This document shows positions 13,615 to 33,346 of a DNA stretch of 63,077 nt, in pieces. The notes beneath the pieces were generated by a model that saw nothing but the letters and a program-made list of their open reading frames with translations, was not told the origin of the DNA and made no database searches. The position numbers and the translations under genes were made by a program. How positions within the stretch are numbered: position 1 is the first letter of the stretch; each line of letters opens with the position of its first letter. The stretch comes from an uncultured Christensenellaceae bacterium (lineage in GTDB: Bacteria > Bacillota > Clostridia > Christensenellales > DTU072): assembly GCA_964432485.1 (NCBI GenBank), contig CAYSNP010000004.1:24319-87395 (forward strand), given 5' to 3'.

Positions 13615-13616
13615 TA

Positions 13617-13645
13617 TTGCTTTTTTGCTAGCTTTCTATTATAAT
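13617..13645 (+). promoter_or_regulatory. Internal sigma-A promoter for malQ
   Basis: TTGCTT, 17 nt, TATAAT; then SD AGAGGT and ATG 13664. Confidence 0.55.
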
Positions 13646-13663
13646 ATGATAAAGAGGTTAATT

Positions 13664-17516: not shown

Positions 17517-17554
17517 AAGAAGGCTGCCAAGCTGTCGTATTGGCAGTTTCTTTT
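17517..17554. terminator. Probable bidirectional intrinsic terminator between convergent genes
   Basis: aagaagg-CTGCCAA, 9-nt loop, TTGGCAG-tttctttt. Confidence 0.6.
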
Positions 17555-18872
17555 AGCTTATAAAGCCATTTATTTTTTCAATCCATTCTGCTACAGCGTT
17601 AGCTTTATAGCTTTGCGGAATATCAAGGATAGCTTGTTTTGCCGCTTTTGACTTGCCTACCACGCTTTTTATCTTTAGCAAGAGTAACGGTTTGCGCCAG
17701 CCTTTTTTAAGTTTTTCAAATATTGCTTTTTTATCCAGCACTATCTCTTGTCCATGCGCTCCCGCCCCCAGCTCTTTTGCGCCCAGGATACCATTGTTAA
17801 ATAAAAAGTTCAGTTCTTTTTCAGTTATTCCCAGCAAAAAGTTCTTTAATACGCAAATGCCAATCATTTTGCTTGCAACTGCAGTAAAATATTCAACTTG
17901 ATAGTCCCAAATATTGTCTATAGTCCATTCCTTTCCCTGTTTGTCAGCTTTAAGTAAGGTATCTGCAAGCATTTTTCCTGCCAAAATGGAGTTAGTAATA
18001 CCGGAGCCGTTAATAGGGATAGGCATAGATGCGGCATCTCCTGTAAGGGCAAAGCTGTCTCCCACTATAAGCGGCAAAGTGGATTTTAGAGGTATATCTC
18101 CCGCATATCCCCCTCGTTTTAGCTCATAGCCGATAGAGGGTTGCGCTTGGCGAAGTTTTTCAAGCACAGCATCCAGCCTTTGTTTGTCAAGAGGTTGCAC
18201 AGCTCCAACTATAATATCCGCCATCCCTTCATTGACCTTATACCACGCCAGCCCTTTTATACCTTCAAACATAAAATAAAAGTTAAATCTATCTGCATTG
18301 ACGATTTTAGCATTGGGTATTAAATTAAAATATGCTCTATATGCCCAAAAAATATCGCTTGGACCATAATTGCTTACAATATTATAGCTTTTCGGCAAGT
18401 GCTTAATAAGCGGCGAGTGTATTCCTGTAGCGTCTATAACAAAGTCAGCTAAAATTTCACCGTCTACGGTAACAATGCCCGCAACTTTATTGGCCGAATC
18501 CAAATAAGGGCGTAAAACTTCTTTTTCGAAATACAATATTGCTCCGCTCTTTAAGGCATTATCAATTAAGTATTTGTACAATACTTTTCTGTCAATGCTA
18601 TACTCTTTTTGGTCTGGACCTGCGTCAATAGATACCGAATTCTTTAAGTTTGGCGGAAAAAAGGTAGAATCAGGCCTGCCCGTATAGTCTTTTTTGCTAA
18701 CTTTTATGCCCGCATATTCAAAAGTGGAAGCGGCTATTGTATCATGCCAATCATACCCCAACTCTTCACGCTTTCGTTTTTCGTATACTTCCACGCTATA
18801 GCCTTGAGCTGCCAAATATGCCGCTGCGGTAAGCCCGCCATGCCCTGCGCCTGCAATTACTATTTTTTTCAT
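17553..18872 (-). CDS. FAD-dependent oxidoreductase (geranylgeranyl reductase/flavoprotein family)
   Basis: IVIAGAGHGGLTAA Rossmann motif with EK; VIDATG; GDAASMPIPINGSGI. Confidence 0.8.
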   Translation of the reverse strand: MKKIVIAGAGHGGLTAAAYLAAQGYSVEVYEKRKREELGYDWHDTIAASTFEYAGIKVSKKDYTGRPDSTFFPPNLKNSVSIDAGPDQKEYSIDRKVLYKYLIDNALKSGAILYFEKEVLRPYLDSANKVAGIVTVDGEILADFVIDATGIHSPLIKHLPKSYNIVSNYGPSDIFWAYRAYFNLIPNAKIVNADRFNFYFMFEGIKGLAWYKVNEGMADIIVGAVQPLDKQRLDAVLEKLRQAQPSIGYELKRGGYAGDIPLKSTLPLIVGDSFALTGDAASMPIPINGSGITNSILAGKMLADTLLKADKQGKEWTIDNIWDYQVEYFTAVASKMIGICVLKNFLLGITEKELNFLFNNGILGAKELGAGAHGQEIVLDKKAIFEKLKKGWRKPLLLLKIKSVVGKSKAAKQAILDIPQSYKANAVAEWIEKINGFIS

Positions 18873-18956: not shown

Positions 18957-19853
18957 TCAATACTTTCTTAAAAACTCCTGCACTTGAGTATTGCTAGGGA
19001 TAGCTGCTGCCGCTCCTTTCTTGGTAGTAGCAAGGGCTGCGGCTGCAGAAGCGTATTGTATAGCTTGCACTACCTCTTTGCCTTGCGCCAGCCCTGCCGC
19101 TAAATATCCGCAATAGGTGTCCCCTGCCGCTGTGGTATCTATTGCTTTTACCTTATAGCTTTTGACAGCGTGTCTATCTTTGCCCTCAATAAGCATAGAG
19201 CCTTGCTCCCCTAATGTGACTATAAGGCGAGCAATGCCTTGCTTTAGCAATGCCTTTACTGCTTTTTCAAAATCAGTACTGCCGCCAAGGGTAGCCAGTT
19301 CGTTTTCATTGGGGATAAGGATATCAGTATAGGAGAGCATATCTAAACATGCAAGATTAGCAGGAGCAGGATTAAGCAAGGTAAGCAGTCCTTTTTGTTT
19401 TGCTTGAGCCAGCCCGTATTTTACTAACTCTAAAGGCACTTCCAACTGCGTTAAAAAAATATCTCCTTCTACAGCTGTCTGCAATAGGGCGTCTATATCG
19501 CTTTTTGCCACTTTGGCATTTGCGCCTGCATTGATAATGATTCTATTGTCCGCATCTACTACTATTATTACAGCAGTGCCCGAAGAGCCGCTTGTTTGGC
19601 GTATATAGTTGCAAGCCACACCTGATTGAGCAAGTGCTGAAAGCATTTGTTCGGCAAAGGTATCAGAGCCTACACAGCCTGCCATATACACTTGTGCTCC
19701 CCCCTTAGCGCAAGCAATAGCCTGATTAGCACCTTTACCGCCGGGGTTTAGCATAAAATCATACCCTATTAGAGTTTCTCCCTTTTTCGGAAAGCGGTCT
19801 GCATTGATAACCACATCCATATTTAAGCTGCCTAACACAAAAATCTTTTTCAT
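18957..19853 (-). CDS. rbsK: Ribokinase
   Basis: GSLNMD, PKKGETL, PGGKGANQA, TQLEVP, PNENE, DTTAAGD. Confidence 0.88.
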   Translation of the reverse strand: MKKIFVLGSLNMDVVINADRFPKKGETLIGYDFMLNPGGKGANQAIACAKGGAQVYMAGCVGSDTFAEQMLSALAQSGVACNYIRQTSGSSGTAVIIVVDADNRIIINAGANAKVAKSDIDALLQTAVEGDIFLTQLEVPLELVKYGLAQAKQKGLLTLLNPAPANLACLDMLSYTDILIPNENELATLGGSTDFEKAVKALLKQGIARLIVTLGEQGSMLIEGKDRHAVKSYKVKAIDTTAAGDTYCGYLAAGLAQGKEVVQAIQYASAAAALATTKKGAAAAIPSNTQVQEFLRKY

Positions 19854-19862
19854 TTTAGCACC

Positions 19863-21488
19863 TTATGCTTTATGCAAAGATAAAACTAAACCTTGATACG
19901 CTGACAACTCTATATTGTTTAGGTCAATAGCTTGCTTATCTTTATTAATACTAAGCAGCACTTGCGCAGCTTTATAGTTGCCTGCATTCTCCAAAGAAAA
20001 AACGCATCCTTTTTTGCTCATATTAAGAGCTACAAATACAGTTTCTTGCTCAGTAGTCCTAAAATACGCTAACACATTTTTAGGAGCTTTTTCGTAAAAG
20101 GCAAACTCGCCAAGTCCTAAAGCATTATTTTTTTTGCGCATCCAAATAAGCTTGCGATAGGTATGCAGCAAGGAGTGCGGGTCTTGCTCCGCTTGCGCCA
20201 CATTTATATTTTTGTAGTCTTTATGTACAGGCAACCAAGGTTCTGCGCTAGAAAAGCCGGCATACTCTTCACTTGACCATTGTATAGGGGTGCGCGCGCG
20301 ATCTCTGCCTCTATGAAAAGGCCAATAGTGCTTGCCTACAGAGTCCATTAGTTCATTCCGCTTTATTTTAACATCCAGCATACCTATTTCCTCGCCCATA
20401 TAGATAAAAGGCGTACCTTTAAGAGTAAGGAGCAAAGCTGCCGCTATTTTAGCCCGTGCCAAAGTCCATTTGCCTTTGGCATACCTGCTGATATGGCGAG
20501 GTATATCATGATTGGAAAGAAAGTAGCTTGGCCAGCCTTTGCCTTGCGTAGCATCAAGCCACTGCTGAATATTTTGCTTAAAGCTAGCAGCCGAAAACTT
20601 AGAATGCATAAAGGCAAAATTAAATACCAAATGCATTCCGTCATTGTTATCCCCATAATACTTTACTGCTTCTTCCACATCTTTAATAAAGATTTCGCCT
20701 ACCAGCATTTTATCTTTATACTTATCTGTAAGTGCTCTCATCATTTTGCCCACTCCAACCGCCTCAGGTCTGTTGCGGTCATAAATATGCTTTTGCATAT
20801 CGTAAGGGCGTATGCCTAAGCAAAAAGGATTGTTGCGCAGCTCGCTGTCTTTATGAGAAAAGTTAAGTACATCCACCCTAAACCCGTCCACCCCTTTTTT
20901 TAGCCAAAACTCCATTGCCGCTAGCACAGCTTTTGCAACTTCGGGGTTTTTCCAATTGAGGTCAGGCTGTTCGGGCAAAGAATTATGATAATAATATTGG
21001 CGGGTCTTAGCGTCCCAATCCCAAGCCCGTCCGCCAAACATCCCCAGCCATTTGTTGGGGTATTTGCCTTGCTTGCCGTCCACCCATATATACCAATCCC
21101 TTTTAGGGCTGTCTTTGCTGGAGCGGGATTCGATAAACCAAGGGTGCAAGTGCGAAGTTACGCTTGGCACAATATCCATAAGGATGCGGATACCTCGCTT
21201 ATGCGCTTCCTCCAGCAATTTATCAAAGTCCGCCATAGTACCGTATTGAGGGTCAATGCCCTCATAATCCATAATGTCATATCCAAAATCATATTGCGGG
21301 CAAGGATATACGGGATTTAGCCAAATAGCGTCTATGCCCAAAGAGTTTTCAGTCCCGTCATTTAAGTAATCCAGCTTTTCAATAATGCCCTTAATATCAC
21401 CTACGCCATCATTGTTAGTATCGTTAAAGCTGCGAGGATACAATTGATATGCAACTGCGCTCTTCCACCATTCTGCCTTGCTATTCAT
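19863..21488 (-). CDS. GH13 alpha-glucosidase-like enzyme (oligo-1,6-glucosidase type) with altered -1 subsite
   Basis: WWKSAVAYQLYPRSF, DFGYDIMDY, QPDLNW, DGFRVD, GE, SNHD; region I reads DIVPSVTS instead of the usual DLVVNHTS; ATG 21488 after GGAGG. Confidence 0.9.
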   Translation of the reverse strand: MNSKAEWWKSAVAYQLYPRSFNDTNNDGVGDIKGIIEKLDYLNDGTENSLGIDAIWLNPVYPCPQYDFGYDIMDYEGIDPQYGTMADFDKLLEEAHKRGIRILMDIVPSVTSHLHPWFIESRSSKDSPKRDWYIWVDGKQGKYPNKWLGMFGGRAWDWDAKTRQYYYHNSLPEQPDLNWKNPEVAKAVLAAMEFWLKKGVDGFRVDVLNFSHKDSELRNNPFCLGIRPYDMQKHIYDRNRPEAVGVGKMMRALTDKYKDKMLVGEIFIKDVEEAVKYYGDNNDGMHLVFNFAFMHSKFSAASFKQNIQQWLDATQGKGWPSYFLSNHDIPRHISRYAKGKWTLARAKIAAALLLTLKGTPFIYMGEEIGMLDVKIKRNELMDSVGKHYWPFHRGRDRARTPIQWSSEEYAGFSSAEPWLPVHKDYKNINVAQAEQDPHSLLHTYRKLIWMRKKNNALGLGEFAFYEKAPKNVLAYFRTTEQETVFVALNMSKKGCVFSLENAGNYKAAQVLLSINKDKQAIDLNNIELSAYQGLVLSLHKA

Positions 21489-21506
21489 AATATTTACCTC
21501 CATATT

Positions 21507-22622
21507 TTATTGCCTGCTAATCATAGATTCTGCAATAATAAGCTCCATATCGCCCCGAGTGTTCTCCGGATTATAGTAGCAATCCAGCATCCTTTCATAA
21601 GGGAGATTGTTAATCCTATCATTCATAATATTCAGCACCTTGATATTAACTTCTACCGCCCTTTTTGCGCTCATCCGCTCCGGATTGATATCAATACCAA
21701 TATACTCTGCAAACCCTGCCGCCTTTAGGGCAAGAAGTCCGGCTTCCGCTTGCTCCCATTCTACTACTCCTACATTTAAGTCTTGGTCGTAATTGCCTAG
21801 CGGCTGACTGTTAAAATGAGGATGGCTCATCCTGCCTTCACGGCAAATTCGTGAAAAAACATAAGGAGTATCTTCATAGCCCATTCGTATATGTCCTATT
21901 TCCGGTTGCATACCTACCAGGCAGAAACCTTGCTCCAGCAGGCTGCGATTGATAGGATTAGCAAGCCTTGCTTCTACATCCCTTGCAAGTAGCAATCCAT
22001 CTGCGCAAGTACGGTAAATATTGTTTGGCACAGGCTCGCAAGGCTTGGTTTCAATGCGTACCATAACGCCGGGCACTTCGTCCATAGCGTCTGCAAGTGC
22101 GCCTTCAAAATTTTCCCACATTTGATAGTATGGGTGCCCATAAGAGTAAGTATAGCCATCTATACCCGGCCAAAGCCCGCAAGCATCCGCTTCTGCTACC
22201 TTAACAAATTTAAGTATTTCAATAAGTTTTTTTGTAGCTTGGTCACGGTATTTTGCTATTGGATTGGACAGTGTGCCAAACTCAAATTCTTTATTATAAA
22301 AGGTATGAGGACCTATGCCCGATATTCTGATGCCCGTTTCTTTTTCCAGTTGTTTGTAAAGGTGAAGGTTTTCTTCGTTTATTTCTACACCATAGTGGGC
22401 TTCTATCCCTTTAACTCCGATTGCCTGCATTTCTGCTACCAGTTCAATTCTTTCCGGTATGCTAATTTCTTTACCATAAGGCTCGTGGAATCTGCTTCCT
22501 CCTGGCGATAAGTACCAAATGCCCACAGTAGGTTTGATTTCCAGCTTAAAATTGCGCAAATGTGCTAACATTTGCTCCTTGTCTCTAAATTGTTTTTGAT
22601 ATTGTAGATTTTGTAGTTTCAT
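21507..22622 (-). CDS. Xylose isomerase-like TIM-barrel sugar isomerase
   Basis: VGIW, EAH, WPGIDGY, IETKPCEP, PEIGH, HPHFNSQ, YDQDL, GID align with XylA/L-RhI motifs. Confidence 0.82.
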   Translation of the reverse strand: MKLQNLQYQKQFRDKEQMLAHLRNFKLEIKPTVGIWYLSPGGSRFHEPYGKEISIPERIELVAEMQAIGVKGIEAHYGVEINEENLHLYKQLEKETGIRISGIGPHTFYNKEFEFGTLSNPIAKYRDQATKKLIEILKFVKVAEADACGLWPGIDGYTYSYGHPYYQMWENFEGALADAMDEVPGVMVRIETKPCEPVPNNIYRTCADGLLLARDVEARLANPINRSLLEQGFCLVGMQPEIGHIRMGYEDTPYVFSRICREGRMSHPHFNSQPLGNYDQDLNVGVVEWEQAEAGLLALKAAGFAEYIGIDINPERMSAKRAVEVNIKVLNIMNDRINNLPYERMLDCYYNPENTRGDMELIIAESMISRQ

Positions 22623-22639
22623 AGTTGCCTCCTTAAAAA

Positions 22640-23560
22640 TTATTTGCTTAGCAGATATTTATTATTTAACTGCTCATAGCTTTCCAGCGTGCCCGATGCG
22701 CCTAACTTGCTCACACATTCCGCCCCTGCGGCATTGCCTAGTGCGGCGCAACCCCTTAGCGAAAGACCGTTGCAGCAAGCGGCTAAAAACCCAGCCACAA
22801 AAGCATCGCCTGCTCCCGTAGTATCTACTACCTTAGCAGGGTAAGCAGGTACTTTTAACTGATTTCCGTTTTCTGAGATCAGGCAACCATCCGCCCCCAT
22901 TTTTATAATAACCGTCCTTGCCCCGTGAATATGAAAAAAATTAGCGGCATCTTCTGCCCTTTTTGCCTTTGATAAGCTCAAAGCCTCTCTAATACTGGGC
23001 AGAAAATAATTCACATAAGCAAGAGCAGGGCGCAAAAGCTCAAAATCTTTGGCTTCTCCCGTAGTGTCTAATGCAGTTTTCAGGACAGCTTTTTGTGCTC
23101 TTTTAAGTAAATTAGCCATACCCATACCGTCTAAGGCAGGCAAATCAAAAGCGCTGCCGATATATAGGCAATCATACTGCTTTAGCGTTTCGTTACTGAT
23201 ATCTTTTTCCGCAAAGGTATGGCAAGCCCCTTTATAGGATAAAAAGCTCCGCTGCCCGTTTTTTTGAATCAGTACAGCAGAACTGGAGGTAGGCAGCTCC
23301 GCTTCAAGCACCAGATTAGTGTCCACTCCTGCGTTTGCCGCTTGCTCCATAATTGCTTGCCCTAGCATATCTTTGCCAATACGGGCAGCAAGTGCAGATT
23401 TTACGCCAAGGGCAGCCAAATTAACTGCCACATTAAAAGCGTCCCCTCCGCCTTTTAGCTCAATGGTGTCAACCTCACTGGTATCTACTTTTAAGCAAGT
23501 GTCTTCCACAGGCTTGATAAGTATATCACATACCGCAAGCCCTGCGCATAGAATCTTCAT
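22640..23560 (-). CDS. PfkB-family carbohydrate kinase
   Basis: GLAVCD, GGGDAFNVA, FLPSIRE, VDTTGAGDAF. Confidence 0.9.
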   Translation of the reverse strand: MKILCAGLAVCDILIKPVEDTCLKVDTSEVDTIELKGGGDAFNVAVNLAALGVKSALAARIGKDMLGQAIMEQAANAGVDTNLVLEAELPTSSSAVLIQKNGQRSFLSYKGACHTFAEKDISNETLKQYDCLYIGSAFDLPALDGMGMANLLKRAQKAVLKTALDTTGEAKDFELLRPALAYVNYFLPSIREALSLSKAKRAEDAANFFHIHGARTVIIKMGADGCLISENGNQLKVPAYPAKVVDTTGAGDAFVAGFLAACCNGLSLRGCAALGNAAGAECVSKLGASGTLESYEQLNNKYLLSK

Positions 23561-23573
23561 AAGCGCTCCCCCT

Positions 23574-24431
23574 TTATCCTGCCTTGCCTGCTAAGGCTGA
23601 AAACAATTTTATTTTTTCTTTTACCAATTCCTTTGCCGCTAGTTGTGCGCTTTTGAACAACTTAAAAACATTATAAGAAAACCCCGTCTCTTGTTGAGCT
23701 TTGGCCAGTTGCGCCCCGTATGCGGCAATAAACTCTGTGCAGATATTTACTTTAGCTATACCGCCTGCAATAGCTTCTGCAACCTTTTTGTCAGGCGTGC
23801 CCGAACCCCCATGCAGCACAAGGGGTATGCTCACTTGCAAAGCTATTTCTTTTAGCCTTTTTATATCAATCTTTGGGGTAGAGGTATAGAACCCATGCGC
23901 AGTACCTATAGCCACAGCCAGCGCATCTATATTAGTACGATTTACAAATTCTTTAGCTTGCAGAGGGTCGGTTAAATGCTCTTGCAAAGAGTCTATCTTA
24001 CCTTCGATGCCTATTAGCTGTCCCAGTTCTGCTTCTACAGTAGCATTGTACCCAGACGCAAGCCTAACTACTTTTTGGACAAGCGCAATATTTTCTTCCA
24101 TTGGCAACATAGACCCATCTATCATTACAGAGGTAAATCCAGCATCTAACACCCTTTCCACTTCTTCATAACTTTCTGCATGGTCAAGGTGCAGGGCTAT
24201 AGGTATAGAAAAAGATTGTGCAGTTATGGTAGCCAATTTATAGGCATTTGGATACCCATACATATAATCTCGCTCATAATGTCCTACTTGCAATATTACA
24301 GGCATGCTCAATTCCTGCGCTGCTTCTGCAACTGCAAAGGCAGAGTCAAGCGACCAAAATTCAAATGCGCCTACTGCATATTTTTGTGCTTTTGCCTGCT
24401 GCAGCATTGCTTTCATATTTACAAGTGCCAT
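23574..24431 (-). CDS. Class II ketose-(bis)phosphate aldolase
   Basis: HLDH, SVMIDGS, EAELG, LAVAIGTAHG, LVLHGGSG, KVNICTE. Confidence 0.92.
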   Translation of the reverse strand: MALVNMKAMLQQAKAQKYAVGAFEFWSLDSAFAVAEAAQELSMPVILQVGHYERDYMYGYPNAYKLATITAQSFSIPIALHLDHAESYEEVERVLDAGFTSVMIDGSMLPMEENIALVQKVVRLASGYNATVEAELGQLIGIEGKIDSLQEHLTDPLQAKEFVNRTNIDALAVAIGTAHGFYTSTPKIDIKRLKEIALQVSIPLVLHGGSGTPDKKVAEAIAGGIAKVNICTEFIAAYGAQLAKAQQETGFSYNVFKLFKSAQLAAKELVKEKIKLFSALAGKAG

Positions 24432-24443
24432 ATACCCTCCATA

Positions 24444-25652
24444 CTATAAAAGCCTTTTCCACAATAAGCTATCTTTGTTATCTTCATCAAATTGCTCATT
24501 GAAAATCAAGGTTGTCGCACCTTTTACAAATAGCTTTTCTTCATTGCATATTTCTATTTTTATATCATCTCTGGTAATAAAATCAGTGCGCTCGAATACC
24601 TTTTGCATTAGGCGATTTTCTAGAGCGGGGAAGCTAGGCAAGAAAGTAGAGTCCAGCACAATAAGTTCAGGGTCGTATGCCTTTATTATATTATCTATAC
24701 TTTGCGCAATATAATCTGTTGCTTGCTCCAATAATTGCATGCTAAACGCATTTTGATTTTTGGCAGACTCAATTATCCAAGCCATATCCAGCTCCGCCTT
24801 AGCAATTTTGTCTAAGCCCTTCTGCTTTTCTGCTTGTGCTTTGGCATAGCTGACTATCCCTAAATTAGAGGCATATAACTCAACACACCCAAAATTGCCG
24901 CAACTACATTGTTCGCCGTTAGGATTGATGCTAATATGCCCAATCTCACCTGCAAAATATCTGCTCCCTCTATATACTTTGCCATCTATTGTTATACCTA
25001 TTCCAATCCCTTCTACGGTAGAAAGATATACAATATTGCTATTAGTTCTATTTGATTTTAAGTATAAAACATTGGCATTGTTATCATTGTCCACAAGCGT
25101 GGGCAAGCTCATTTTTTTGCCCAGAAGCTCACCCAGAGGGATGTTCTTCCACCCTTTGATATGCGGCAATTCCAATATTACTCCTCTTGCAAAGTCAACA
25201 GGACCGGGCACAGATACTCCAATCCCGGCAATATCTTTTTTTTCAATACCGCTCTTTTCAATAATGCAGTGTATTTTGTCCGCTAAAACTTGTACTACTT
25301 CTTCTATTGAGTTATCGGCAAGTTTGAATTTTTCGCTACTGCAGCTAGCTTGCCCAAAAGCAAAATCAAATATGCCAATGCTAATCTGCTCAATACCGAT
25401 AGATACCCCTATTGTATACAAGCTCTTAGGATTTAAGCCATATATTGCCGCTTTTCTGCCTCCGGTAGAGATAGCAAGCCCATTATCTAATACAATTTCT
25501 TGAGCCAGCAGCTCATTGACAAAAGCATTTATAGTGCCTGCTGTAAGCACAGTCTTTTCCCTTAGCTCCTGCTTGGTAAGTTTACCGTGCCGCCTAAAGC
25601 AATCCAGTACCTCTAACATATTTTTGCGCTTAACTAAACTGGTAACTGCCAT
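24444..25652 (-). CDS. ROK-family transcriptional repressor (NagC/XylR-like)
   Basis: N-terminal wHTH plus STGGRK; GVSVPGPVD, VDNDNNA, GEIGH, CSCGNFGCVE. Confidence 0.92.
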   Translation of the reverse strand: MAVTSLVKRKNMLEVLDCFRRHGKLTKQELREKTVLTAGTINAFVNELLAQEIVLDNGLAISTGGRKAAIYGLNPKSLYTIGVSIGIEQISIGIFDFAFGQASCSSEKFKLADNSIEEVVQVLADKIHCIIEKSGIEKKDIAGIGVSVPGPVDFARGVILELPHIKGWKNIPLGELLGKKMSLPTLVDNDNNANVLYLKSNRTNSNIVYLSTVEGIGIGITIDGKVYRGSRYFAGEIGHISINPNGEQCSCGNFGCVELYASNLGIVSYAKAQAEKQKGLDKIAKAELDMAWIIESAKNQNAFSMQLLEQATDYIAQSIDNIIKAYDPELIVLDSTFLPSFPALENRLMQKVFERTDFITRDDIKIEICNEEKLFVKGATTLIFNEQFDEDNKDSLLWKRLL

Positions 25653-25695
25653 TTTTTATACCCTTATTCAACAACTTAATGCAAGTGTTATAATA

Positions 25696-25724
25696 AGTTT
25701 ATCATAGCATTACAAAAATGTCAA
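25696..25724 (-). promoter_or_regulatory. sigma-A promoter of the ROK operon
   Basis: Minus strand TTGACA, 17 nt, TAAACT with extended TG. Confidence 0.6.
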
Positions 25725-25737
25725 TAGCTTTTTTTTA

Positions 25738-25774
25738 TTTAACATAAGGTATTTTCTTTAACATAAGCTATTTT
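25738..25774. repeat. Tandem direct repeat TTTAACATAAG(G/C)TATTTT with 19-nt period, candidate operator
   Basis: Two copies, 17 of 18 nt identical, at 25738-25755 and 25757-25774, between the two divergent promoters. Confidence 0.6.
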
Positions 25775-25837
25775 GCCGACAATAAGGCATTGCATTTTCT
25801 TAAAACAATTAAAGCACTTGTTATTTGGCAATAGGTC

Positions 25838-25866
25838 TTGACATAATACACTCAAGCTAATACAAT
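25838..25866 (+). promoter_or_regulatory. sigma-A promoter of the GPH transporter
   Basis: TTGACA, 17 nt, TACAAT. Confidence 0.75.
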
Positions 25867-25915
25867 GATAAGAAGGTTCTTTTATTTTTAAGAAAAAAGT
25901 TTTACGAGAGGAAAT

Positions 25916-27457
25916 ATGAATAGCATAAAACAAGAAAACACTAAGCAAAACTCTGTCCAAAAACTCTCCAATAGGAATCTTTTGATGTTTTCATTAGGGA
26001 CTTTTGGCAGAGATTTTGTCTATTGCTTATTTGCCGCAAATTTAATTAACTTTATATTATATACCAAGCAGTTGACAGAAGTGCAATTCGGCGCTGTTAC
26101 CGCTATTATTATCGGCGCAAGGCTGTTTGACGCTTTTAATGACCCTATTATGGGCGGCATTGTAGAAAATACCCGAACAAAATGGGGCAAGTTTAAGCCC
26201 TGGCAGCTTATTGGCTCAATCACTACGGGGATAGTAATTATAGCGTTATTTACCAATGATTATCAAGGCAGCTCTTTTGTATGGTTCTTGGGTATTATTT
26301 ATTTTTTGTTTAGTATTACCTTTACTATGAATGATATTTCTTATTGGGGGATGTTGCCTTCGCTTTCCAGCAATGAGCACGATAGAAGCAAGCTAACAGC
26401 AGTAGCTCAAATAGTAGCAGGCGCAGGCGGAGCTTTGGCAGGTGTAGCTATCCCTCTTTTTACTATTGGCAAATCTGCAATAGGCGGCAATGCCGTAACA
26501 GGATATAAGGTGATTTCAATTGTGTCCGTATTGCTAATGATTGCTTTTCAAATGTTTACTATATTGGGAGTAAAGGAAAAGCCTTTAGCACCTATCTTAG
26601 AGAAAAAGGATAAGCTCACCATAAAGCAAATGTTTACTACATTAGCAAAAAATGACCAGCTAATGTGGATAACAATAATAACCTTACTTTTTTGCATAGG
26701 CACAGGAGTAGTGGATGGAGGTCTTAACACTACTTATATTTACTTTGAATTTGGTTACGAAGGCTTGCTAATTACCCTTTTTGGCATCGTGTTTGCGGCG
26801 ATAAGCGGTGTCTTTACAGTAACTTACCCTTGGATAGAAAAGAAATTCTCCAGAACAAAACTGATATATACAACAGGCATAGCTTTAATTGTGGGCTATA
26901 TGCTAATGCTTATTTTTGGATTAATTCTGCCTTCTGGGGCACCAAATACTGCAGCTTGGTATGCCAAATTCATAGTTATGGCTTTAATTAATGGTATAGT
27001 AGGTTTTGGCAGAGGTTTTTATATGATAATGATTATTTCTATTGCCAATACCGTAGAATATAACGAGTACAAATTCGGTAAGCGTGAAGAAGGGCTGATT
27101 TTTTCCTTGCGTCCTTTTACTGCAAAGCTATCCAGCGCAATTTCTCAAGGATTGGTAACGGTAGTATATATTGTGGCAGGGGTGCTAACCTATACTAATA
27201 AAATTTCTGCATTGGAAAACGAAGCAGCTCAAAACATAATTTCTGAAGAAGTAAAGACGGGTAAAATTAAGGATATTATCAGCACTGTTTCTGCAGATGC
27301 AAAAAAAATGTTGTTAGTGTGTATGTGCTTGATTTGCATGTCAATTATGGCTGTGGCATTATTTATTTATAAAAAGAAGTTTACTTTAGACGAAGCTACA
27401 TACTCAAATATTCTCAGAGAGCTAGAGGCAAGGAGAGCTCAAGAAGAGGATAGCTAA
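25916..27457 (+). CDS. MFS glycoside-pentoside-hexuronide (GPH/MelB-like) transporter
   Basis: ARLFDAFNDPIMG, TRTKWGKFKPW, DISYWGM, NTVEYNEYKFGKREEG; about 12 hydrophobic segments. Confidence 0.9.
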   Translation: MNSIKQENTKQNSVQKLSNRNLLMFSLGTFGRDFVYCLFAANLINFILYTKQLTEVQFGAVTAIIIGARLFDAFNDPIMGGIVENTRTKWGKFKPWQLIGSITTGIVIIALFTNDYQGSSFVWFLGIIYFLFSITFTMNDISYWGMLPSLSSNEHDRSKLTAVAQIVAGAGGALAGVAIPLFTIGKSAIGGNAVTGYKVISIVSVLLMIAFQMFTILGVKEKPLAPILEKKDKLTIKQMFTTLAKNDQLMWITIITLLFCIGTGVVDGGLNTTYIYFEFGYEGLLITLFGIVFAAISGVFTVTYPWIEKKFSRTKLIYTTGIALIVGYMLMLIFGLILPSGAPNTAAWYAKFIVMALINGIVGFGRGFYMIMIISIANTVEYNEYKFGKREEGLIFSLRPFTAKLSSAISQGLVTVVYIVAGVLTYTNKISALENEAAQNIISEEVKTGKIKDIISTVSADAKKMLLVCMCLICMSIMAVALFIYKKKFTLDEATYSNILRELEARRAQEEDS

Positions 27458-27478: not shown

Positions 27479-27510
27479 AAGGAAGCCTAAAAAAAGGTTT
27501 CCTTTTTTTT
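27479..27510 (+). terminator. Intrinsic terminator
   Basis: AAGGAAGCCT, A6 loop, AGGTTTCCTT, then a T-run. Confidence 0.65.
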
Positions 27511-27587
27511 ATAATAATTAGCCTAAAAAAAGGTAGCTTATTAAGCTATAAGTGCATATATCCCCTTTTTTTCCGCAAGATTATAAT

Positions 27588-28121
27588 ATGGATATTTACT
27601 CAATAGGCCATTCTACTCATAGCAAGCAGGAGTTTTTATCGATTTTGCATTATTTTTGCATAAAGGTGCTAGTTGACGTGCGCTCTTACCCCGGCAGCAG
27701 GCATGTCCCTCATTTTAGCAAACAAAGTATGCCTTTTTGGTTAAATGAGCAAGGTATCAGCTACGTGCATATCCCAAAGTTGGGAGGGCGCAGACGAAAA
27801 GGGCAACTGCAAGATTCTTCACTGATAGCGGGCTGGGATAATGAGGCCTTTAAGAACTATTCTGCATACACTTTATCAGACGAATATGAGCAAGGTTTGC
27901 TTGAACTATTATATATTGCTAAGGATAAGCAGGCATGTATAATGTGCGCCGAAAGTGTGCCTTGGCGCTGTCATAGGATGTTGATTTCTAATAGTTTAGT
28001 GGTAAGGGGAGCTCATGTGCTGCATATAATGGATAAATATAAGGTAGAAGAGCATCAACTGGACAAATACGGTGCAAAGACCAGCATACAAGGAGAAAGA
28101 ATAATTTATCCAAAAATTTAG
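27588..28121 (+). CDS. DUF488 family protein (alternative GTG start 27552)
   Basis: IYSIGHS, LVDVRSYPGSR, LGGRR, MCAE...CHR. Confidence 0.82.
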   Translation: MDIYSIGHSTHSKQEFLSILHYFCIKVLVDVRSYPGSRHVPHFSKQSMPFWLNEQGISYVHIPKLGGRRRKGQLQDSSLIAGWDNEAFKNYSAYTLSDEYEQGLLELLYIAKDKQACIMCAESVPWRCHRMLISNSLVVRGAHVLHIMDKYKVEEHQLDKYGAKTSIQGERIIYPKI

Positions 28122-28211: not shown

Positions 28212-30662
28212 ATGAAGATAGTAATTGTTGGCGGTGTTGCCGGCGGGGCTACTGTTGCGGCACGCCTTAGAAGATTAAGCGAAGAGTATGAAATAATAAT
28301 ATTAGAACGAGACTCCTATATATCTTATGCCAATTGCGGACTGCCATATTATATTGGCGATGTGATAACTGATAAGGAAAAACTGGTAGTTCAAACTCCG
28401 CAGGCTATGGGGATGCGTTTTAATTTGGATATACGCACAAAGCACGAAGTGCTTAGCATAGATAAAGCTAATAAAAAGCTGCTTGTAAAGAATCTTGAGA
28501 GTGGAGAGGATTACGAGCAAAGCTATGATAAGCTAATTCTTTCTTGCGGAGCAAAACCGCTTAAGCCGCCAATCAAAGGGCTTGACAGGGCGCAAAATGT
28601 CTTTACTTTGCGCAATATTCCTGATACATTTGCAATAAAAGAGTATATTCAAGCTAATAATGTTAAAAAAGCGGCAGTTATTGGCGGCGGATTTATTGGC
28701 GTAGAAATGGCAGAAAATCTGGCTAAGCTAGGCATAGAGGTCAGCTTAATAGAAAAATTGCCTCAGGTTTTAAGGCAGCTAGACTTCGAAATGGCGCAGT
28801 TTGTGCATGCCGAGCTTTGCGGTAACGGCATAGAATTGATTTTGTCAGACCAAGTTGAGGCTTTTGCCGATAAAGGGCGCACCATAGTGTTAGGAAGCGG
28901 CAGAAAAATAGCTTGCGATATGGCTGTGTTGGCCATTGGGATTGCTCCGGATAATATATTGGCAAAATCAGCAGCTCTCAAGCTGGGCGATTTTGGGCAT
29001 TTGCAAGTGTCGGAGACTTTTAATACTTTTGATAAGGAAAGCGGAGCTAAAGAGGCGGATATATATGCCATTGGCGATATGATAGAGGTAGTCAATCCAC
29101 TGGATAACAGCACTTATGCTGTAAGTCTTGCTTGGGGAGCAAATAGGCAAGGCAGGCTACTTGCCGACCATATTTTTGGCAGTAAAATCAAGGCTAGTAA
29201 GATTTTAGCTACTAATGTAATAAGCGTCTTTGAGCTTACCGCTGCCGGCACAGGAGCTAATGAGGAAACATTAAAAGCAAAAGGCATACCTTACAAGGCT
29301 ATCCATGCGCATCGCTCTAACCATGCCAGCTATTATCCGGGCTCTTTTAATATTTCGCTAAAACTTTTATACGAAGAAAAGACCGGCAGAATATTAGGTG
29401 CGCAAGCAGTAGGCAGGGCAGGTACAGAAAAGCGTATAGATACAATTGCTACGGCAATGCGTTTTGGCGGCACTATTTTTGAGCTAAGCGATTTGGAGTT
29501 TTGCTATGCTCCGCCTTATTCGTCTGCCAAAGACCCCGTCAATATACTAGGCTACATTGGCGAAAATATTGAAGCAGGCGCATACAAGCCTGTTTACCAT
29601 TACCAAATTGATGAAATAGCAAAAAATGGTGGCTATATTTTAGATGTCAGGACTCCGATAGAATATAATAATGGCAAAATTGAGGGCTCTATCAACTTAG
29701 AAGTTGACTCTTTGCGGCAAAATATTGATAAGATTACCTTGTCTAAAGACGCTCCTCTTTATGTAACTTGCCAAGTTGGGCTAAGGGCATATATTGCTAT
29801 AAAAATCTTAAAAGCGCATGGTTTTACCAATCTTTACAACCTTTCGGGCGGGTATTTAACTTATAAAATGTATCATTATCAGCCTATTGTAAATAAAAAG
29901 TTAAGACATATAGAAGTCAATGACTTACAGCAAAAGAAAGAAGTAAAAGAAATAGATGTAACAGGTTTGCAATGCCCGGGTCCGCTAATGGCAACGTATA
30001 AAGCGGTAGAAGCACTTGCCACAGGCGAAAAAGTTCGCATTTTAGCTACTGACACCGGTTTTGCCAATGATATTGAAAATTGGTGTCAAACGAACGGTCA
30101 TATATTAGAAGGGTTAAAGACTGAGGGTGGCAGAATTGTAGCAACTATTGCAAAAGGCGACGAAAGCAGGGGCATATTAGGCGCAATAGATCAAAGGAAT
30201 GCCACAATTGTAGTATTTAGCGGAGCGCTAGATAAGGTGCTGGCTGCTATGATTATAGCGCAAGGCGCGGCGGCTCAAGGCAAAAATGTTACCATGTTCT
30301 TTACCTTTTGGGGACTTAATGCGCTAAGAAGGTCAGAAAAAGTTAAAGTAAAAAAGAGCGCAATGGAAAAAATGTTTGGCACTATGATGCCAAAAGGTGC
30401 GGACAGACTGCCTTTATCTTCTATGAATATGGCAGGCATGGGAGCAAAAATGATAAAAGGCATTATGAAAAAGAAAAATGTGGACTCCTTGCCTCAAATG
30501 ATAAAGCATGCTCAAGCAGCCGGAGTGCGTATGATAGCTTGTACTATGAGCATGGACCTGATGGGTATCAAAAAAGAGGAGCTTATAGACAATATTGACT
30601 ATGCAGGCGTAGCAACTTATATCAGCAAAAATGAAAATGTAGGCACCACTTTATTTATCTAA
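28212..30662 (+). CDS. CoA-disulfide/persulfide reductase fused to rhodanese, TusA/SirA and DsrE-like domains
   Basis: GGVAGG, SYANCGLPY, GGGFIG, YAPPYS; LDVR...CQVGLR (rhodanese); DVTGLQCPGP (TusA); FFTFWGL and ACTMSMDLMG (DsrE2). Confidence 0.9.
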   Translation: MKIVIVGGVAGGATVAARLRRLSEEYEIIILERDSYISYANCGLPYYIGDVITDKEKLVVQTPQAMGMRFNLDIRTKHEVLSIDKANKKLLVKNLESGEDYEQSYDKLILSCGAKPLKPPIKGLDRAQNVFTLRNIPDTFAIKEYIQANNVKKAAVIGGGFIGVEMAENLAKLGIEVSLIEKLPQVLRQLDFEMAQFVHAELCGNGIELILSDQVEAFADKGRTIVLGSGRKIACDMAVLAIGIAPDNILAKSAALKLGDFGHLQVSETFNTFDKESGAKEADIYAIGDMIEVVNPLDNSTYAVSLAWGANRQGRLLADHIFGSKIKASKILATNVISVFELTAAGTGANEETLKAKGIPYKAIHAHRSNHASYYPGSFNISLKLLYEEKTGRILGAQAVGRAGTEKRIDTIATAMRFGGTIFELSDLEFCYAPPYSSAKDPVNILGYIGENIEAGAYKPVYHYQIDEIAKNGGYILDVRTPIEYNNGKIEGSINLEVDSLRQNIDKITLSKDAPLYVTCQVGLRAYIAIKILKAHGFTNLYNLSGGYLTYKMYHYQPIVNKKLRHIEVNDLQQKKEVKEIDVTGLQCPGPLMATYKAVEALATGEKVRILATDTGFANDIENWCQTNGHILEGLKTEGGRIVATIAKGDESRGILGAIDQRNATIVVFSGALDKVLAAMIIAQGAAAQGKNVTMFFTFWGLNALRRSEKVKVKKSAMEKMFGTMMPKGADRLPLSSMNMAGMGAKMIKGIMKKKNVDSLPQMIKHAQAAGVRMIACTMSMDLMGIKKEELIDNIDYAGVATYISKNENVGTTLFI

Positions 30663-30810: not shown

Positions 30811-33297
30811 ATGAAAAAGATGCTAAAAGAACTATATTTTTTTGGACTACTTATTTTATTTACTTTACTGCTTAGCTTAAATAGCCCATTGTCCATTAAT
30901 GCATATGCTAATAGCGTTGGCATTATTTTGTATTTGGATAACTTTGAAGGGAATATTAGCATCCACGATGAGTTGTACAATAATGATAACGAGTCTTTAT
31001 ATTATATAGAACCTGAAGAAGAGTACAGAGCAGTTTCATCCGATATTTCTGGTTACGAAATTACTTTTTGTATAATGCCTACCAATCCTTTTATAGAATA
31101 TCAAGTTCAAATTGCAGAAGGAGAAATCGAATATTTTGCAGGAAATCAATGTTTTGTATGGATAAAAGATGCACCCTCTTGTAATATTACTCTTGGAGTT
31201 AAACAAGAAGAGGAAGCAGAGCCGCCCGCACCGCTTATGCTGATTGTAGAGTTTGATATAGGCGACGGCACAACTTTAGATGGGGATTTACTAATTCAAG
31301 AAGTGGCAGAAGGCGGCTCTGCTATAGAGCCGGATATTATCCCTCCTGAGGGCTATGATTTTCAGGGCTGGGATACTCCTTTTTCCGATATTTCATCAGA
31401 TATTGCAGTAAATGGAAAGATTACCATAAAAGCTGAATACAAAATATTAAAGTATCAAGTTAATTACTATACGGAAGGCGGGCTTTTTTCCACAATTGAG
31501 CAAGAATATAACTCTCTTTTAAAATTGCCTCTTAATGACCCTATTATGGAAGGGCATTACCTTTTGCATTGGGAAGACGAGAGTCAGATAGCCTACGACG
31601 AAACTTATAGAGTAACTGCAGACCTAGCTTTACATGCTGTCTTTAAGCGCAATCAATATACAATTACCTTTTATGACGGAGAAGCAGAGTTAGGAGAAAA
31701 AGTAGCCCTATTTGGTGATATTATACCCAAAATATTAAATCCGCAAAAGGACGGGTATAGCTTTGAAGGGTGGTATACTGATAAGAGTTTTCAAAACAAA
31801 TTGATTTATACAAGCGATAGCCCCATTGTGGAAGACAATACCGCTATATATGCAAAATTTCAGCTTAATAACATTATAATAACTTATAAGGACAACTTGC
31901 AAGGGGAGTATCAAACGCTTCAAGCCCCCGCTTTTAGCGTGCTGGTACTTGCCCCTGCCCTTACCATTGGCTATAAGATAGCAGTACAAGCAGTAGACTC
32001 CCAAGGAGCAGAATATGCAATAGAAAATATGGAGGTAACTTGCTCCTTTTATAATATAGAAATTACTTACACTTACGAAAAAGATACTTTTTATTTAGCA
32101 TTTGAATGTGCCCTTTTGCCTAGCATTGCTCCCGATACCATAGAAGCCCTTTTTGAGGAAGCAATTAACTTGCCTACTGTAGAAGAATACGGTTACTCCT
32201 TTTTAGGTTATTATCAAGACGAGCATTTTTCATTGCCTGCAGAATATATGACAATGCCTTACTCTGCCAATACGGATAAGACAACTACTCTATATATTAA
32301 GCTGCAAAAAAAGCAATATAATATTACTTTTGACTCTCAAGGCGCTCAAGAGTTTGATACTGTTATAGCAGAGTATATGGACAGCATTGACTTAGACGAA
32401 TACCGTCCAAATAGAGAAAATATGCTATTTTTAGGCTGGTTGGATTCTTTCGGGCAACTGCAAGAGCCTTTTAGCGGCACTTTTTTAGTAGAAAGAGATA
32501 CCCTTTTTACTGCAGTCTTTCAAATGATTAAAGAAAACTTTAATATTAGTTTTGTACTGCCAAGTTCCCTTACCTTTGATTTGCTTGACGGGCAGGAATA
32601 TGTTATTCCTGTAATATGCCCTGACACAATTACAATTAAGTATAAAGAAACGCCGGACATTCTTCCCGACCCGCAAGCGGAAGGACATATCTTTTTGGGC
32701 TGGTTTACAGATAGGGAGTGTGCCCAAAGCTATACTCCTTTGCCTATTGCTGATGACATTATCCTTTACGGATTATTCGAAACAGTTACGCTTACAGCAA
32801 CTTTTTGGTGCCGCAATCAAAAAATTGTCAAGAATGTAGAATATTACTCTCCTATGCCCACGCTGAACCCTTTAGAGGTGATAAGCGAATACTATACTTT
32901 TACAGGTTGGGATAAAACTGTTGACTATATCACCGAGGATATTGAATTTATTGCCCTTTATACCCCTTTATATAATATTGTTGTGCTTGATAAGGCCAAT
33001 CAAATGATAATAAGACCGCACGATTGCAAGCTGGATGCCTTTTTATCCTCTTTGGATTTAGCTCTTGAAGAAGACGAAGTTTTTTTGGGCTGGAAGCTGG
33101 AAGTTTATGACCAAGACACAAATACTTTTGCCTATGTGCCCAATATAGTTAAGACAACTCAATCGGGCATTATAGACGAAAAAGATTTAATGCTACTTTG
33201 CTCCCTTATAGCTAACTTATTATTGCTTGTATCCCTTATGCTAATCATTATTTCTTTTAAGGTCAAGGCAAAGACATTAAAATTGAAAAAGTTTTAA
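30811..33297 (+). CDS. Acidic surface protein with ~8-9 InlB-B (Listeria/Bacteroides)-type repeats and a C-terminal membrane anchor
   Basis: Signal peptide; recurring Y.ITF...P..EGY.F.GW..D...LYAKF units; hydrophobic C-terminus followed by a Lys-rich tail. Confidence 0.8.
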   Translation: MKKMLKELYFFGLLILFTLLLSLNSPLSINAYANSVGIILYLDNFEGNISIHDELYNNDNESLYYIEPEEEYRAVSSDISGYEITFCIMPTNPFIEYQVQIAEGEIEYFAGNQCFVWIKDAPSCNITLGVKQEEEAEPPAPLMLIVEFDIGDGTTLDGDLLIQEVAEGGSAIEPDIIPPEGYDFQGWDTPFSDISSDIAVNGKITIKAEYKILKYQVNYYTEGGLFSTIEQEYNSLLKLPLNDPIMEGHYLLHWEDESQIAYDETYRVTADLALHAVFKRNQYTITFYDGEAELGEKVALFGDIIPKILNPQKDGYSFEGWYTDKSFQNKLIYTSDSPIVEDNTAIYAKFQLNNIIITYKDNLQGEYQTLQAPAFSVLVLAPALTIGYKIAVQAVDSQGAEYAIENMEVTCSFYNIEITYTYEKDTFYLAFECALLPSIAPDTIEALFEEAINLPTVEEYGYSFLGYYQDEHFSLPAEYMTMPYSANTDKTTTLYIKLQKKQYNITFDSQGAQEFDTVIAEYMDSIDLDEYRPNRENMLFLGWLDSFGQLQEPFSGTFLVERDTLFTAVFQMIKENFNISFVLPSSLTFDLLDGQEYVIPVICPDTITIKYKETPDILPDPQAEGHIFLGWFTDRECAQSYTPLPIADDIILYGLFETVTLTATFWCRNQKIVKNVEYYSPMPTLNPLEVISEYYTFTGWDKTVDYITEDIEFIALYTPLYNIVVLDKANQMIIRPHDCKLDAFLSSLDLALEEDEVFLGWKLEVYDQDTNTFAYVPNIVKTTQSGIIDEKDLMLLCSLIANLLLLVSLMLIIISFKVKAKTLKLKKF

Positions 33298-33317
33298 GCT
33301 ACTCTAAAAGGAAATAA

Positions 33318-33346
33318 TTGATAATACAATAATCTTATTGTATAAT
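33318..33346 (+). promoter_or_regulatory. sigma-A promoter
   Basis: TTGATA, 17 nt, TATAAT with extended TG. Confidence 0.7.

Follow-up and report, generated by a model that had tools for sequence, protein, structure and literature searches.

The stretch of DNA analysed here, referred to as the window, comprises 63,077 nucleotides of contig CAYSNP010000004.1 (assembly GCA_964432485.1) from an uncultured Christensenellaceae bacterium. The subject of this analysis is a minus-strand run of sugar-related genes, headed by a gene for a ROK-family regulator and facing a divergent transporter gene of the glycoside-pentoside-hexuronide (GPH) family. Genes were assigned from an open reading frame (ORF) map together with Pfam and NCBIfam scans of the window. 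Both the run and the divergent GPH gene had been described in an earlier note on this DNA, and the ORFs and domain matches recovered them in the same place. The locus contains the following features:

25916-27457, plus strand: GPH (MFS_2) glycoside:cation symporter, divergent from the operon; proposed alpha-glycoside importer
25653-25915: divergent control region of 263 bp between the ROK operon and the transporter gene
24444-25652, minus strand: ROK regulator, winged helix-turn-helix (HTH) plus ROK domain; operon gene 1
23574-24431, minus strand: class II (PF01116) aldolase without a distal-phosphate site; proposed ketose-1-phosphate aldolase yielding dihydroxyacetone phosphate (DHAP) and a short aldehyde
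22640-23560, minus strand: K1, a YdjH-like PfkB kinase; proposed ketose 1-kinase
21507-22622, minus strand: XIL, a xylose-isomerase-like TIM barrel of an uncharacterised family; two-metal aldose-ketose isomerase type
19863-21503, minus strand: cytoplasmic GH13 exo-alpha-glycosidase of a clade carrying N114S and H115V; proposed hydrolase of the imported alpha-glycoside
18957-19853, minus strand: K2, a ribokinase-like PfkB protein; final operon gene
27479-27504, plus strand: terminator-like hairpin 3' of the transporter gene, a 10-bp stem followed by a T run

According to the ORF map, the genes of the minus-strand run are separated by gaps of 12, 13, 17, 3 and 9 nt. Promoter-like sites point in both directions from the control region, one toward the transporter gene (plus strand, 25838-25866, TTGACA-17-TACAAT) and one toward the operon (minus strand, 25724-25696, TTGACA-17-TAAACT, with a TG). 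A search of 25653-25915 for a ROK operator identified none, only weak inverted repeats being present.

The same or a very similar gene set was found in at least ten independent loci from Bacillota and Anaerolineae. The earlier note had let its proposal depend on the homologues being conserved together as a cluster, and across these loci they do recur together. A GH13 with Ser-Val in region I (SV-type), XIL and a PfkB kinase were present in eight of ten loci carrying this GH13 variant (window, L001-3, L008, L010, L012, L168, L169 and L178). In all ten an aldose-ketose isomerase adjoins the variant GH13, a co-occurrence count that is inflated inasmuch as five of the loci were found via XIL. Four loci (L168-L171), fetched via the GH13 itself, are unbiased for this count, and an isomerase was present in each of them. 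In L171 the place of XIL is taken by a xylose isomerase (XI)-like protein that is only 26% identical to XIL. In L170 (Anaerolineae) the variant GH13 and a GPH gene are followed by a 478-aa isomerase of the Fucose_iso_C family (11134-12570), and XIL is missing; the sole NCBIfam match of this isomerase is the sulfoquinovose isomerase SftI, at 85 bits against a cut-off of 700. The two non-orthologous isomerase replacements are strong evidence that the sugar released by the variant GH13 must be isomerised. A metagenome scan with an alignment of the variant GH13 did not extend the clade, as the patterns selected from it also occur in ordinary relatives: all 80 loci recovered encode GH13 relatives that retain the histidine (43-61% identical), and they served as a negative control. 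XIL was found in none of these 80 loci, 47 of which have at least 5 kb of flanking sequence. Thus, the run did not come together by chance but is one conserved functional sugar-utilisation unit, shared by several uncultured anaerobes. Direct observations are the families of the genes, the residues substituted and the synteny across phyla.

The GH13 protein matches PF00128 at 455 bits, and its nearest structures are XgtA (6aav) and HaG (3wy1). Alpha-glucosidases and glucosyltransferases of the XgtA/HaG type can be aligned with it from end to end, at an identity of about 40-45%. Throughout the clade the catalytic triad is kept, namely D211 (GFRVD211V), E270 (VGE270I) and D333 (NHD333); the QPDLN motif and the Asp and Arg closing subsite -1 are also present in the window protein, and no signal peptide is apparent from its sequence. 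Region I reads DIVPSV where relatives have DxVxNH. In the alignment, DIVPSV-TSH of the window protein matches DQVLSH-TS of XgtA (PDB 6aav), and V115 falls on His105 of HaG. His105 is one of the residues that fix glucose in subsite -1 of HaG (PMC8537225). Loss of the region I histidine, which the earlier note had pointed out, is a conserved feature of the clade: when the 120 best homologues and the window protein were compared, it was lost in 26 (25 Val, 1 Ile) and kept in 93, the remaining two having Thr-Leu, and the catalytic residues were conserved in the whole set. We take the specific contact of HaG His105 to be with O6 of glucose. The clade-specific changes (N114S, H115V, I/V213L, Y/Q369M and N174) are all neutral and several (V, L, M) are hydrophobic; no gain of a cationic residue was found in the variant clade, Arg, Lys and Trp having been checked. 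In a sister lineage (P0149, also P0155) the Asn-His of region I is replaced by Thr-Leu, which may represent an independent loss of the histidine. The P0149 gene lies in a ROK-GH13-MFS_2 unit (L179, 7765-12044) with no isomerase within 9 kb.

XIL matches PF01261 weakly (34 bits) and passed no XylA model; against xylA_Arthro (TIGR02631) it scored 36.7 (cut-off 447) and against the RhaI model 27.9 (cut-off 531). More than 2800 homologues turned up, spread over 563 GTDB species that are represented without exception by metagenome-assembled genomes (MAGs). Members from different phyla (Actinomycetota, Spirochaetota, Dictyoglomota, Anaerolineae, Bacillota and Bathyarchaeia) are about 60% identical, and the loci nearest to the window come from Christensenellaceae and Defluviitaleaceae MAGs. 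The AlphaFold (AF2) model of XIL (pLDDT 87.5) is nearest to 3KTC, to class I xylose isomerases and to the L-rhamnose isomerase of P. stutzeri, with TM scores of about 0.7-0.75; 3KTC, the closest structure, carries no assigned function. Residues E191, K193, E241, H244, D279, D281 and D311 are invariant and H76 is conserved. XIL keeps the equivalents of XI Trp16, His54, Phe94, Trp137, Glu181, Lys183, Glu217, His220, Asp255, Asp257 and Asp287. The mixed metal ligands attributed to the isomerase in the earlier note were confirmed, in that an invariant His269 stands where XI has Asp245 in metal site 1 and the other two-metal ligands are kept. A His at this position is also seen in L-rhamnose isomerase.

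In 41 of 87 XIL loci the same-strand neighbour of XIL is an FGGY kinase scoring above the XylB equivalog cut-off (553 against 380). A further locus, L079 (Endomicrobiia), has the order GH52-like, solute-binding protein (SBP), XylB, transketolase, XIL and lies within a GH9/GH5/GH48 locus, among cellulase genes. In the window and its clade XIL is not paired with xylulokinase, and PfkB kinases take the place of XylB. GH13-linked XILs form one clade in a neighbour-joining tree. We considered that this clade might have acquired a new specificity and dropped the idea, the expected active-site changes not having been found: GH13-linked and XylB-linked XILs differ at three conservative positions only, and all metal and catalytic residues are invariant. 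Since the active site of GH13-linked XIL is unchanged relative to XylB-linked members, the isomerase reaction is probably the same, which points to xylose. In L169, a YicI-like GH31 gene lies directly upstream of XIL; with 34% identity to YicI, its product reaches 565 bits against the alpha-xylosidase model.

Other XIL neighbours were noted in passing. A conserved operon of Actinomycetota (L024, L053, L059, L074 and L045, about 2-13 kb) includes XIL and XylB together with a Gfo/Idh/MocA oxidoreductase, a psicose-3-epimerase-like TIM barrel, a second TIM barrel, a Zn-dependent dehydrogenase and a 398-aa protein without a Pfam or NCBIfam match. A URO-D-like gene (uroporphyrinogen decarboxylase / methyltransferase fold) stands beside XIL in L173 (7814-8956), L024 (3262-4293) and other Actinomycetota loci, and is therefore common to a Bacillota locus with aldolase, K1 and XIL and to the Actinomycetota operon; it hints at a decarboxylation or O-demethylation step ahead of the isomerase. 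In two Bacillota loci (L174, 13129-15106; L178, 4690-6683) a Gfo/Idh/MocA oxidoreductase gene followed by one for an XI-like TIM barrel of about 296 aa lies beside the aldolase, K1 and XIL genes.

Among characterised proteins, E. coli YdjH is by far the nearest to K1; the two are 32% identical along 99% of the length (E 9e-51). YdjH (3h49) is also its best match in the PDB, with an E value of 6e-45, the next match having 5e-22. K1 passes no NCBIfam equivalog cut-off and is only 26% identical to YihV. Its orthologues (46-57% identical) always adjoin XIL (L001, L008, L173 and L174). The E. coli K-12 genes ydjI and ydjH lie side by side, ordered like their counterparts in the window, and are annotated as octuluronate-1-phosphate aldolase and octuluronate kinase, respectively; by this annotation YdjH supplies the aldolase YdjI with its ketose-1-phosphate substrate. 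The order aldolase, K1, XIL is shared by the window, L008 and L178, which have the GH13, and by L173 and L174, which do not.

The window aldolase matches PF01116 at 294 bits and stays below the equivalog cut-offs for fructose-1,6-bisphosphate (FBP) and tagatose-bisphosphate aldolases; it is 37% identical to E. coli YdjI and scores 172 bits against SqiA and 197 against FBA. Its zinc and catalytic motifs are kept (HLDH, EAELG, GTAHG, LHGGSG), and NVNT is represented by NICT. Both ligands of the distal phosphate are lost, the Ser of GVSEG being replaced by Gly and the Arg of DPR by Phe; at the same two positions YdjI has Gly and a deletion. The DPR Arg position was equated with H. pylori Arg280 by numbering offset, and the distal Ser corresponds to H. 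pylori Ser49. In SqiA, Ala257 replaces this distal-phosphate Arg (PMC10665668). With both distal-phosphate ligands lost, we rejected the possibility that the window protein is a housekeeping FBP aldolase. The Arg is likewise absent from all 120 nearest homologues, which on sequence grounds form a large clade of probable ketose-monophosphate aldolases. These homologues (P0241-P0360) are 56-95% identical, commonly have the NICT motif and are labelled fructose-bisphosphate aldolase in their sources; the residue at the lost Arg position varies among them (N, E, M, F, P, L, D, Y).

K2 passes the TIGR02152 ribokinase equivalog cut-off (311.5 against 299.65). It is 36% identical to E. coli RbsK, with the ribose-binding motifs GSxNxD, GGKGANQ, QLE and DTxAAGD kept, as are the equivalents of RbsK N14, D16, K43, N46, E143 and D255. 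A K2-like gene is present in the Bacillota loci L001, L008, L171 and L174, the last of which is without the GH13. In the Anaerolineae loci the place of K2 is held by a P-loop kinase resembling PRK and FrcK, and K1 is replaced by another PfkB protein, K3, which is 32% identical to YihV. K2 may act on the aglycone sugar or on a second ketose, and two kinases beside one isomerase could reflect two sugars derived from a disaccharide. The transporter scored 257.9 bits on TIGR00792 gph (cut-off 231) and also matches PF13347. Its best relative in E. coli is MelB (26%, 142 bits), and it is less close to YicJ (24%). A GPH gene lies beside the variant GH13 in seven of the ten loci, with products 22-27% identical to the window GPH, so that the link holds at family level only. 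Orthology of the transporter was considered and dropped, there being no clear signal to YicJ, YihO or MelB. The regulator matches PF00480 at 1.2e-46 and HTH_24 weakly, and its best NCBIfam models are NagC and Mlc, both below cut-off. It has the zinc motif CxCGxxGC (CSCGNFGC), and the kinase motif DxGxT reads VSIGIE. ROK regulators adjoin the module in L001-3, L008, L174 and L178 and are only 27-31% identical.

These data suggest the following pathway. The GPH symporter would import an alpha-glycoside, which the GH13 with Val at the position of the subsite -1 His would hydrolyse in the cytoplasm. XIL would convert the freed aldose to the 2-ketose, the YdjH-like kinase K1 would place a phosphate on C1 of this ketose, and the class II aldolase without a second-phosphate site would cleave the ketose-1-phosphate to DHAP and a short, unphosphorylated aldehyde. 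The most likely glycone would be D-xylose, supplied by alpha-xylosides such as isoprimeverose, in which case xylulose would be converted to xylulose-1-phosphate and then to DHAP and glycolaldehyde. The order of the reactions, the C1 regiochemistry of the kinase and the identity of the sugar we infer from sequence and synteny. The logic of isomerase, 1-kinase and aldolase is supported by the YdjH-like K1, by the aldolase lacking its distal ligands and by the recurring triad; import, glycosidase, isomerase, ketose 1-kinase and aldolase had been the logic put forward in the earlier note, and the coupling of GH13 to an isomerase argues for it as well. We consider this sequence of hydrolase, isomerase, 1-kinase and aldolase probable. 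That xylose is the sugar is put forward more cautiously, as a possible assignment. The full statement, that the ROK-controlled operon and the divergent GPH importer catabolise an alpha-glycoside with a glycone other than ordinary glucose, most likely alpha-linked xylose, is a tentative one, which we rate somewhat below even. A natural xylulose-1-phosphate pathway in anaerobic Bacillota, made up of a third, undescribed class of xylose isomerase, a YdjH-like 1-kinase, a class II aldolase and the first GH13 alpha-xylosidase, is doubtful as a complete package. We searched the literature for a GH13 alpha-xylosidase, for a natural xylulose-1-phosphate pathway and for any XIL family member that has been characterised, without a relevant hit.

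Several points weigh against the proposed xylose pathway. Xylulose has a free 5-OH, and XylB together with the pentose phosphate pathway is its normal and more efficient route; a sugar whose terminal carbon is blocked, for instance 6-deoxyglucose, would suit the 1-kinase and aldolase chemistry better. The aldolase is present in only three of the ten GH13-variant loci (window, L008 and L178), so that elsewhere the kinase product would have to enter metabolism otherwise or via an aldolase encoded elsewhere. Neither a glycolaldehyde nor a lactaldehyde reductase or dehydrogenase was found in the window and nine related loci, as the earlier note had remarked for the cluster itself. A flavoprotein encoded by the next minus-strand gene after K2 (17553-18872) was examined as the missing aldehyde oxidoreductase and rejected: it is geranylgeranyl-reductase-like, its gene has a promoter-like site of its own, and it is not conserved in related loci. 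The case for phosphorylation at C1 depends on a 32% identity of K1 to YdjH, and the ribokinase-like K2 has no role in the proposed pathway. Val is smaller than His, and the substitution alone does not exclude glucose from subsite -1. The transporters of the other loci are not orthologues of the window GPH. Finally, XylB-linked XILs of Actinomycetota sit in the larger operon described above, with the URO-D-like gene, Gfo/Idh/MocA, two other TIM barrels and a Zn-dependent alcohol dehydrogenase, and the substrate of this operon may be some sugar that is not free xylose.

The blocked terminal carbon leads to the first alternative, a 6-deoxy-alpha-D-glucoside (quinovoside), from which 6-deoxyglucose would be isomerised to 6-deoxyfructose, phosphorylated to the 1-phosphate and cleaved to DHAP and D-lactaldehyde. 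A sugar that cannot be phosphorylated at C6 would explain the use of a 1-kinase and an aldolase, and a C6 methyl group would suit both the hydrophobic changes in the GH13 (H115V, I/V213L, Y/Q369M) and the Phe at the phosphate-binding Arg position of the aldolase. Xylose isomerases, moreover, accept gluco-configured aldoses with differing C5 substituents. However, the active site of XIL is the same as in members paired with xylulokinase or transketolase, a lactaldehyde reductase or dehydrogenase is found in none of the ten loci, and the aldolase, indispensable for a 6-deoxy sugar, is missing in seven of them. Also, alpha-D-quinovosides are rare in plant biomass and digesters, the source of these MAGs. 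On balance, we regard a quinovoside as unlikely. The earlier note had offered glucose analogues altered at C6 or alpha-linked xylose; of these options alpha-linked xylose is the best supported, through the association of XIL with xylulokinase and once with transketolase, and 6-deoxyglucose stays on the list as a minor candidate.

The operon might also serve ordinary alpha-glucosides, the GH13 freeing glucose and XIL converting it to fructose, which would then proceed either via fructose-1-phosphate to DHAP and glyceraldehyde or, through two kinases, via fructose-6-phosphate and FBP. The GH13 is 40-45% identical to true alpha-glucosidases, with triad and QPDLN motif intact, and xylose isomerases double as glucose isomerases. 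Two kinases are indeed present, an aldolase without a distal-phosphate site suits fructose-1-phosphate, and no dedicated aldolase would be needed in most loci. Against this, the clade with the His-to-Val change is always coupled to an isomerase, whereas XIL occurs in none of the 80 His-retaining loci, which suggests that the glycone has changed. The class II enzyme cannot act as an FBP aldolase, the motifs of K2 are those of a ribokinase and not of a fructokinase or 1-phosphofructokinase, and there is no obvious gain from bypassing glucokinase and phosphoglucose isomerase. Plain glucoside use is therefore also an improbable explanation.

Rather less probable still is the absence of a single pathway, the operon being a co-regulated mosaic of independent sugar genes. 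In favour of such a mosaic, kinases differ by lineage, with K1 and K2 in Bacillota and K3 and the PRK-like kinase in Anaerolineae, the presence of the aldolase and the type of transporter vary, and K2 resembles a plain ribokinase. The strict coupling of the variant GH13 to an isomerase, including the two non-orthologous replacements, is difficult to reconcile with this, ordinary relatives being without XIL; in addition, the order aldolase, K1, XIL is fixed in five loci, and the gaps of 3-17 nt are consistent with co-transcription.

We consider it very unlikely that the substrate is an alpha-glucuronide, for example GlcA-alpha-1,2-Xyl from xylan, which the GH13 would split into glucuronate and xylose. 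XIL would isomerise one or both, and the YdjH/YdjI-like pair would take fructuronate to its 1-phosphate and on to DHAP and tartronate semialdehyde. The product names of YdjH and YdjI denote ketoses ending in a carboxylate, the transporter is of the glycoside-pentoside-hexuronide family, and an altered C6 would fit the missing O6-binding His; the xylose half would explain the link of XIL to xylulokinase, and two sugars would account for two kinases. This reading is entirely inferential, and the residues speak against it: the GH13 clade gains no cationic or carboxylate-binding residue, and the aldolase gains Phe, nothing polar or cationic. Tartronate semialdehyde reductase, glycerate kinase and nearby uronate genes are missing as well.

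A variant of the sulfoglycolytic Embden-Meyerhof-Parnas (sulfo-EMP) pathway, with the GH13 as a new sulfoquinovosidase, XIL as sulfoquinovose isomerase, the PfkB protein as sulfofructose kinase and an aldolase of SqiA type, has in its favour the parallel with the layout of E. coli yih (GPH YihO/YihP, glycosidase, isomerase, PfkB YihV, aldolase), the fact that SqiA is a PF01116 protein likewise without the distal Arg, and the resemblance of the Anaerolineae PfkB to YihV and of the L170 isomerase to SftI, but is highly improbable and was rejected as the main model, given that sulfolactaldehyde (SLA) reductase or dehydrogenase and a sulfonate exporter were found neither in the window nor in the nine related loci, that the GH13 clade gains no Arg, Lys or Trp, that the similarities to SftI and, for K1, to YihV are weak, that the aldolase is missing in seven of ten loci and that XIL is the same enzyme as in xylulokinase and transketolase loci. 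The 6-sulfo substrate considered in the earlier note is unlikely on the same grounds, there being no cationic gain in the GH13 and no SLA enzyme or exporter in ten loci.

Beyond the run and its transporter, the window contains further genes. A complete glycogen gene set lies directly upstream (3688-15178, plus strand), with glgB-like, glgC, glgD and glgA genes and glycogen phosphorylase; it also holds another GH13 (11806-13614) and a GH77 4-alpha-glucanotransferase (13625-15178). On the far side of the transporter gene, just downstream of a DUF488 gene (27552-28121), an 816-aa fusion protein is encoded (28212-30662, plus strand) that combines pyridine-nucleotide-disulphide oxidoreductase, rhodanese, TusA and DsrE-like domains and looks like a multi-domain enzyme for handling sulfur or persulfide. 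It is followed by three large Listeria-Bacteroides repeat (Flg_new) proteins, interleaved with a sulfatase-fold protein and an ABC-FtsX fusion (30811-41314, plus strand); these are probably cell-surface genes.

Whatever the sugar, the module is a well-defined target for enzymology, and three of its components appear, from their sequences, to be of interest individually: the GH13 clade of SV type, XIL as a family and the clade of class II aldolases without the Arg. If the proposed pathway is correct, GH13, which ranks with the most thoroughly studied glycosidase families, gains a new specificity that can be annotated by the change from NH to SV in region I, and the XIL family, labelled 'xylose isomerase' or 'TIM barrel protein' without evidence in 563 species genomes, is given a function. 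Moreover, a large clade of 'class II fructose-bisphosphate aldolases' would consist of ketose-1-phosphate aldolases, which would correct a mis-annotation in gut and digester Clostridia. There would then exist a natural route from a pentose or deoxy-hexose to DHAP and a C2 or C3 aldehyde, the enzymes of which would be useful for metabolic engineering. To our knowledge, such a route has so far only been engineered, for the production of glycolate and ethylene glycol.

Several known systems resemble the window system in part. An engineered counterpart is a synthetic xylulose-1-phosphate pathway in E. coli that uses human ketohexokinase and aldolase B (covered by reviews such as PMC6995148 and PMC4559361). 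It shares with the proposal the route from xylose via xylulose and xylulose-1-phosphate to DHAP and glycolaldehyde as well as a 1-kinase of the ribokinase superfamily; the synthetic pathway is engineered and uses a class I aldolase, whereas the window would provide a natural one with a class II aldolase. With E. coli ydj the window shares a PF01116 aldolase gene adjacent to that of a PfkB kinase, both aldolases being without the distal Ser and Arg. However, the ydj locus contains no glycosidase or isomerase and has dehydrogenases and MFS transporters instead, and YdjI is not a nearer relative of the window aldolase than FBP or tagatose-bisphosphate aldolases are. The best substrates of YdjH and YdjI are C7-C9 ketoses of the uronate type that end in a carboxylate.

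An isoprimeverose locus of Lactobacillus pentosus (Chaillou 1998, as cited in PMC6007345) reportedly encodes the GPH transporter XylP, the alpha-xylosidase XylQ, the ROK regulator XylR and XylAB, and the resemblance of the window to this layout counts in favour of xylose. As in L. pentosus xylPQ-xylR-xylAB and E. coli yicJ-yicI, a GPH transporter, a cytoplasmic alpha-glycosidase, a ROK protein, an XI-type enzyme and a kinase come together in one locus in the window. In contrast to these systems, the alpha-xylosidase would be a GH13 and not a GH31 enzyme, the kinase is PfkB and not FGGY XylB, the isomerase fails both XylA models, and an aldolase replaces entry into the pentose phosphate pathway. 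XIL itself has the TIM barrel in common with class I xylose isomerases and the P. stutzeri L-rhamnose isomerase at an identity of only about 18-21%. The window GH13 differs from XgtA and HaG (GH13_23-like) by the change of the region I His to Val and by three further neutral changes, and the genes of its clade always stand beside one for an aldose-ketose isomerase.

The sulfo-EMP systems (YihO/P-Q-S-V-T-U; SqvD-SqiK-SqiA) follow the logic proposed for the window, with a GPH importer, an alpha-glycosidase, an isomerase, a ketose 1-kinase (PfkB in sulfo-EMP1) and a DHAP-yielding aldolase (PF01116 in SqiA, likewise without the distal Arg). Their glycosidase belongs to GH31 (YihQ type) or GH188 and their isomerase to PF07221 or PF02952, whereas the window has a GH13 enzyme and the XI-like PF01261; the window also lacks an SLA reductase or dehydrogenase, an exporter and any sign of sulfonate recognition. 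The claim of the earlier note that none of the pathways it named combines these enzyme families was overstated, as GPH, PfkB and PF01116 proteins do occur in sulfo-EMP variants: a GPH transporter and a PfkB kinase operate in sulfo-EMP1, and the aldolase of sulfo-EMP2 and of hybrid clusters is a class II enzyme of PF01116. The system is placed outside the known ones in that it does not have the sulfo-EMP features, fails the XylA models and is without the distal site of FBP aldolases and the region I His of GH13. What is new in this role is confined to the GH13 and the XI-like isomerase. Judged by its genes, the window system would appear to work like the rhamnose, fucose, sulfo-EMP and Ydj routes, yet to belong to none of them.

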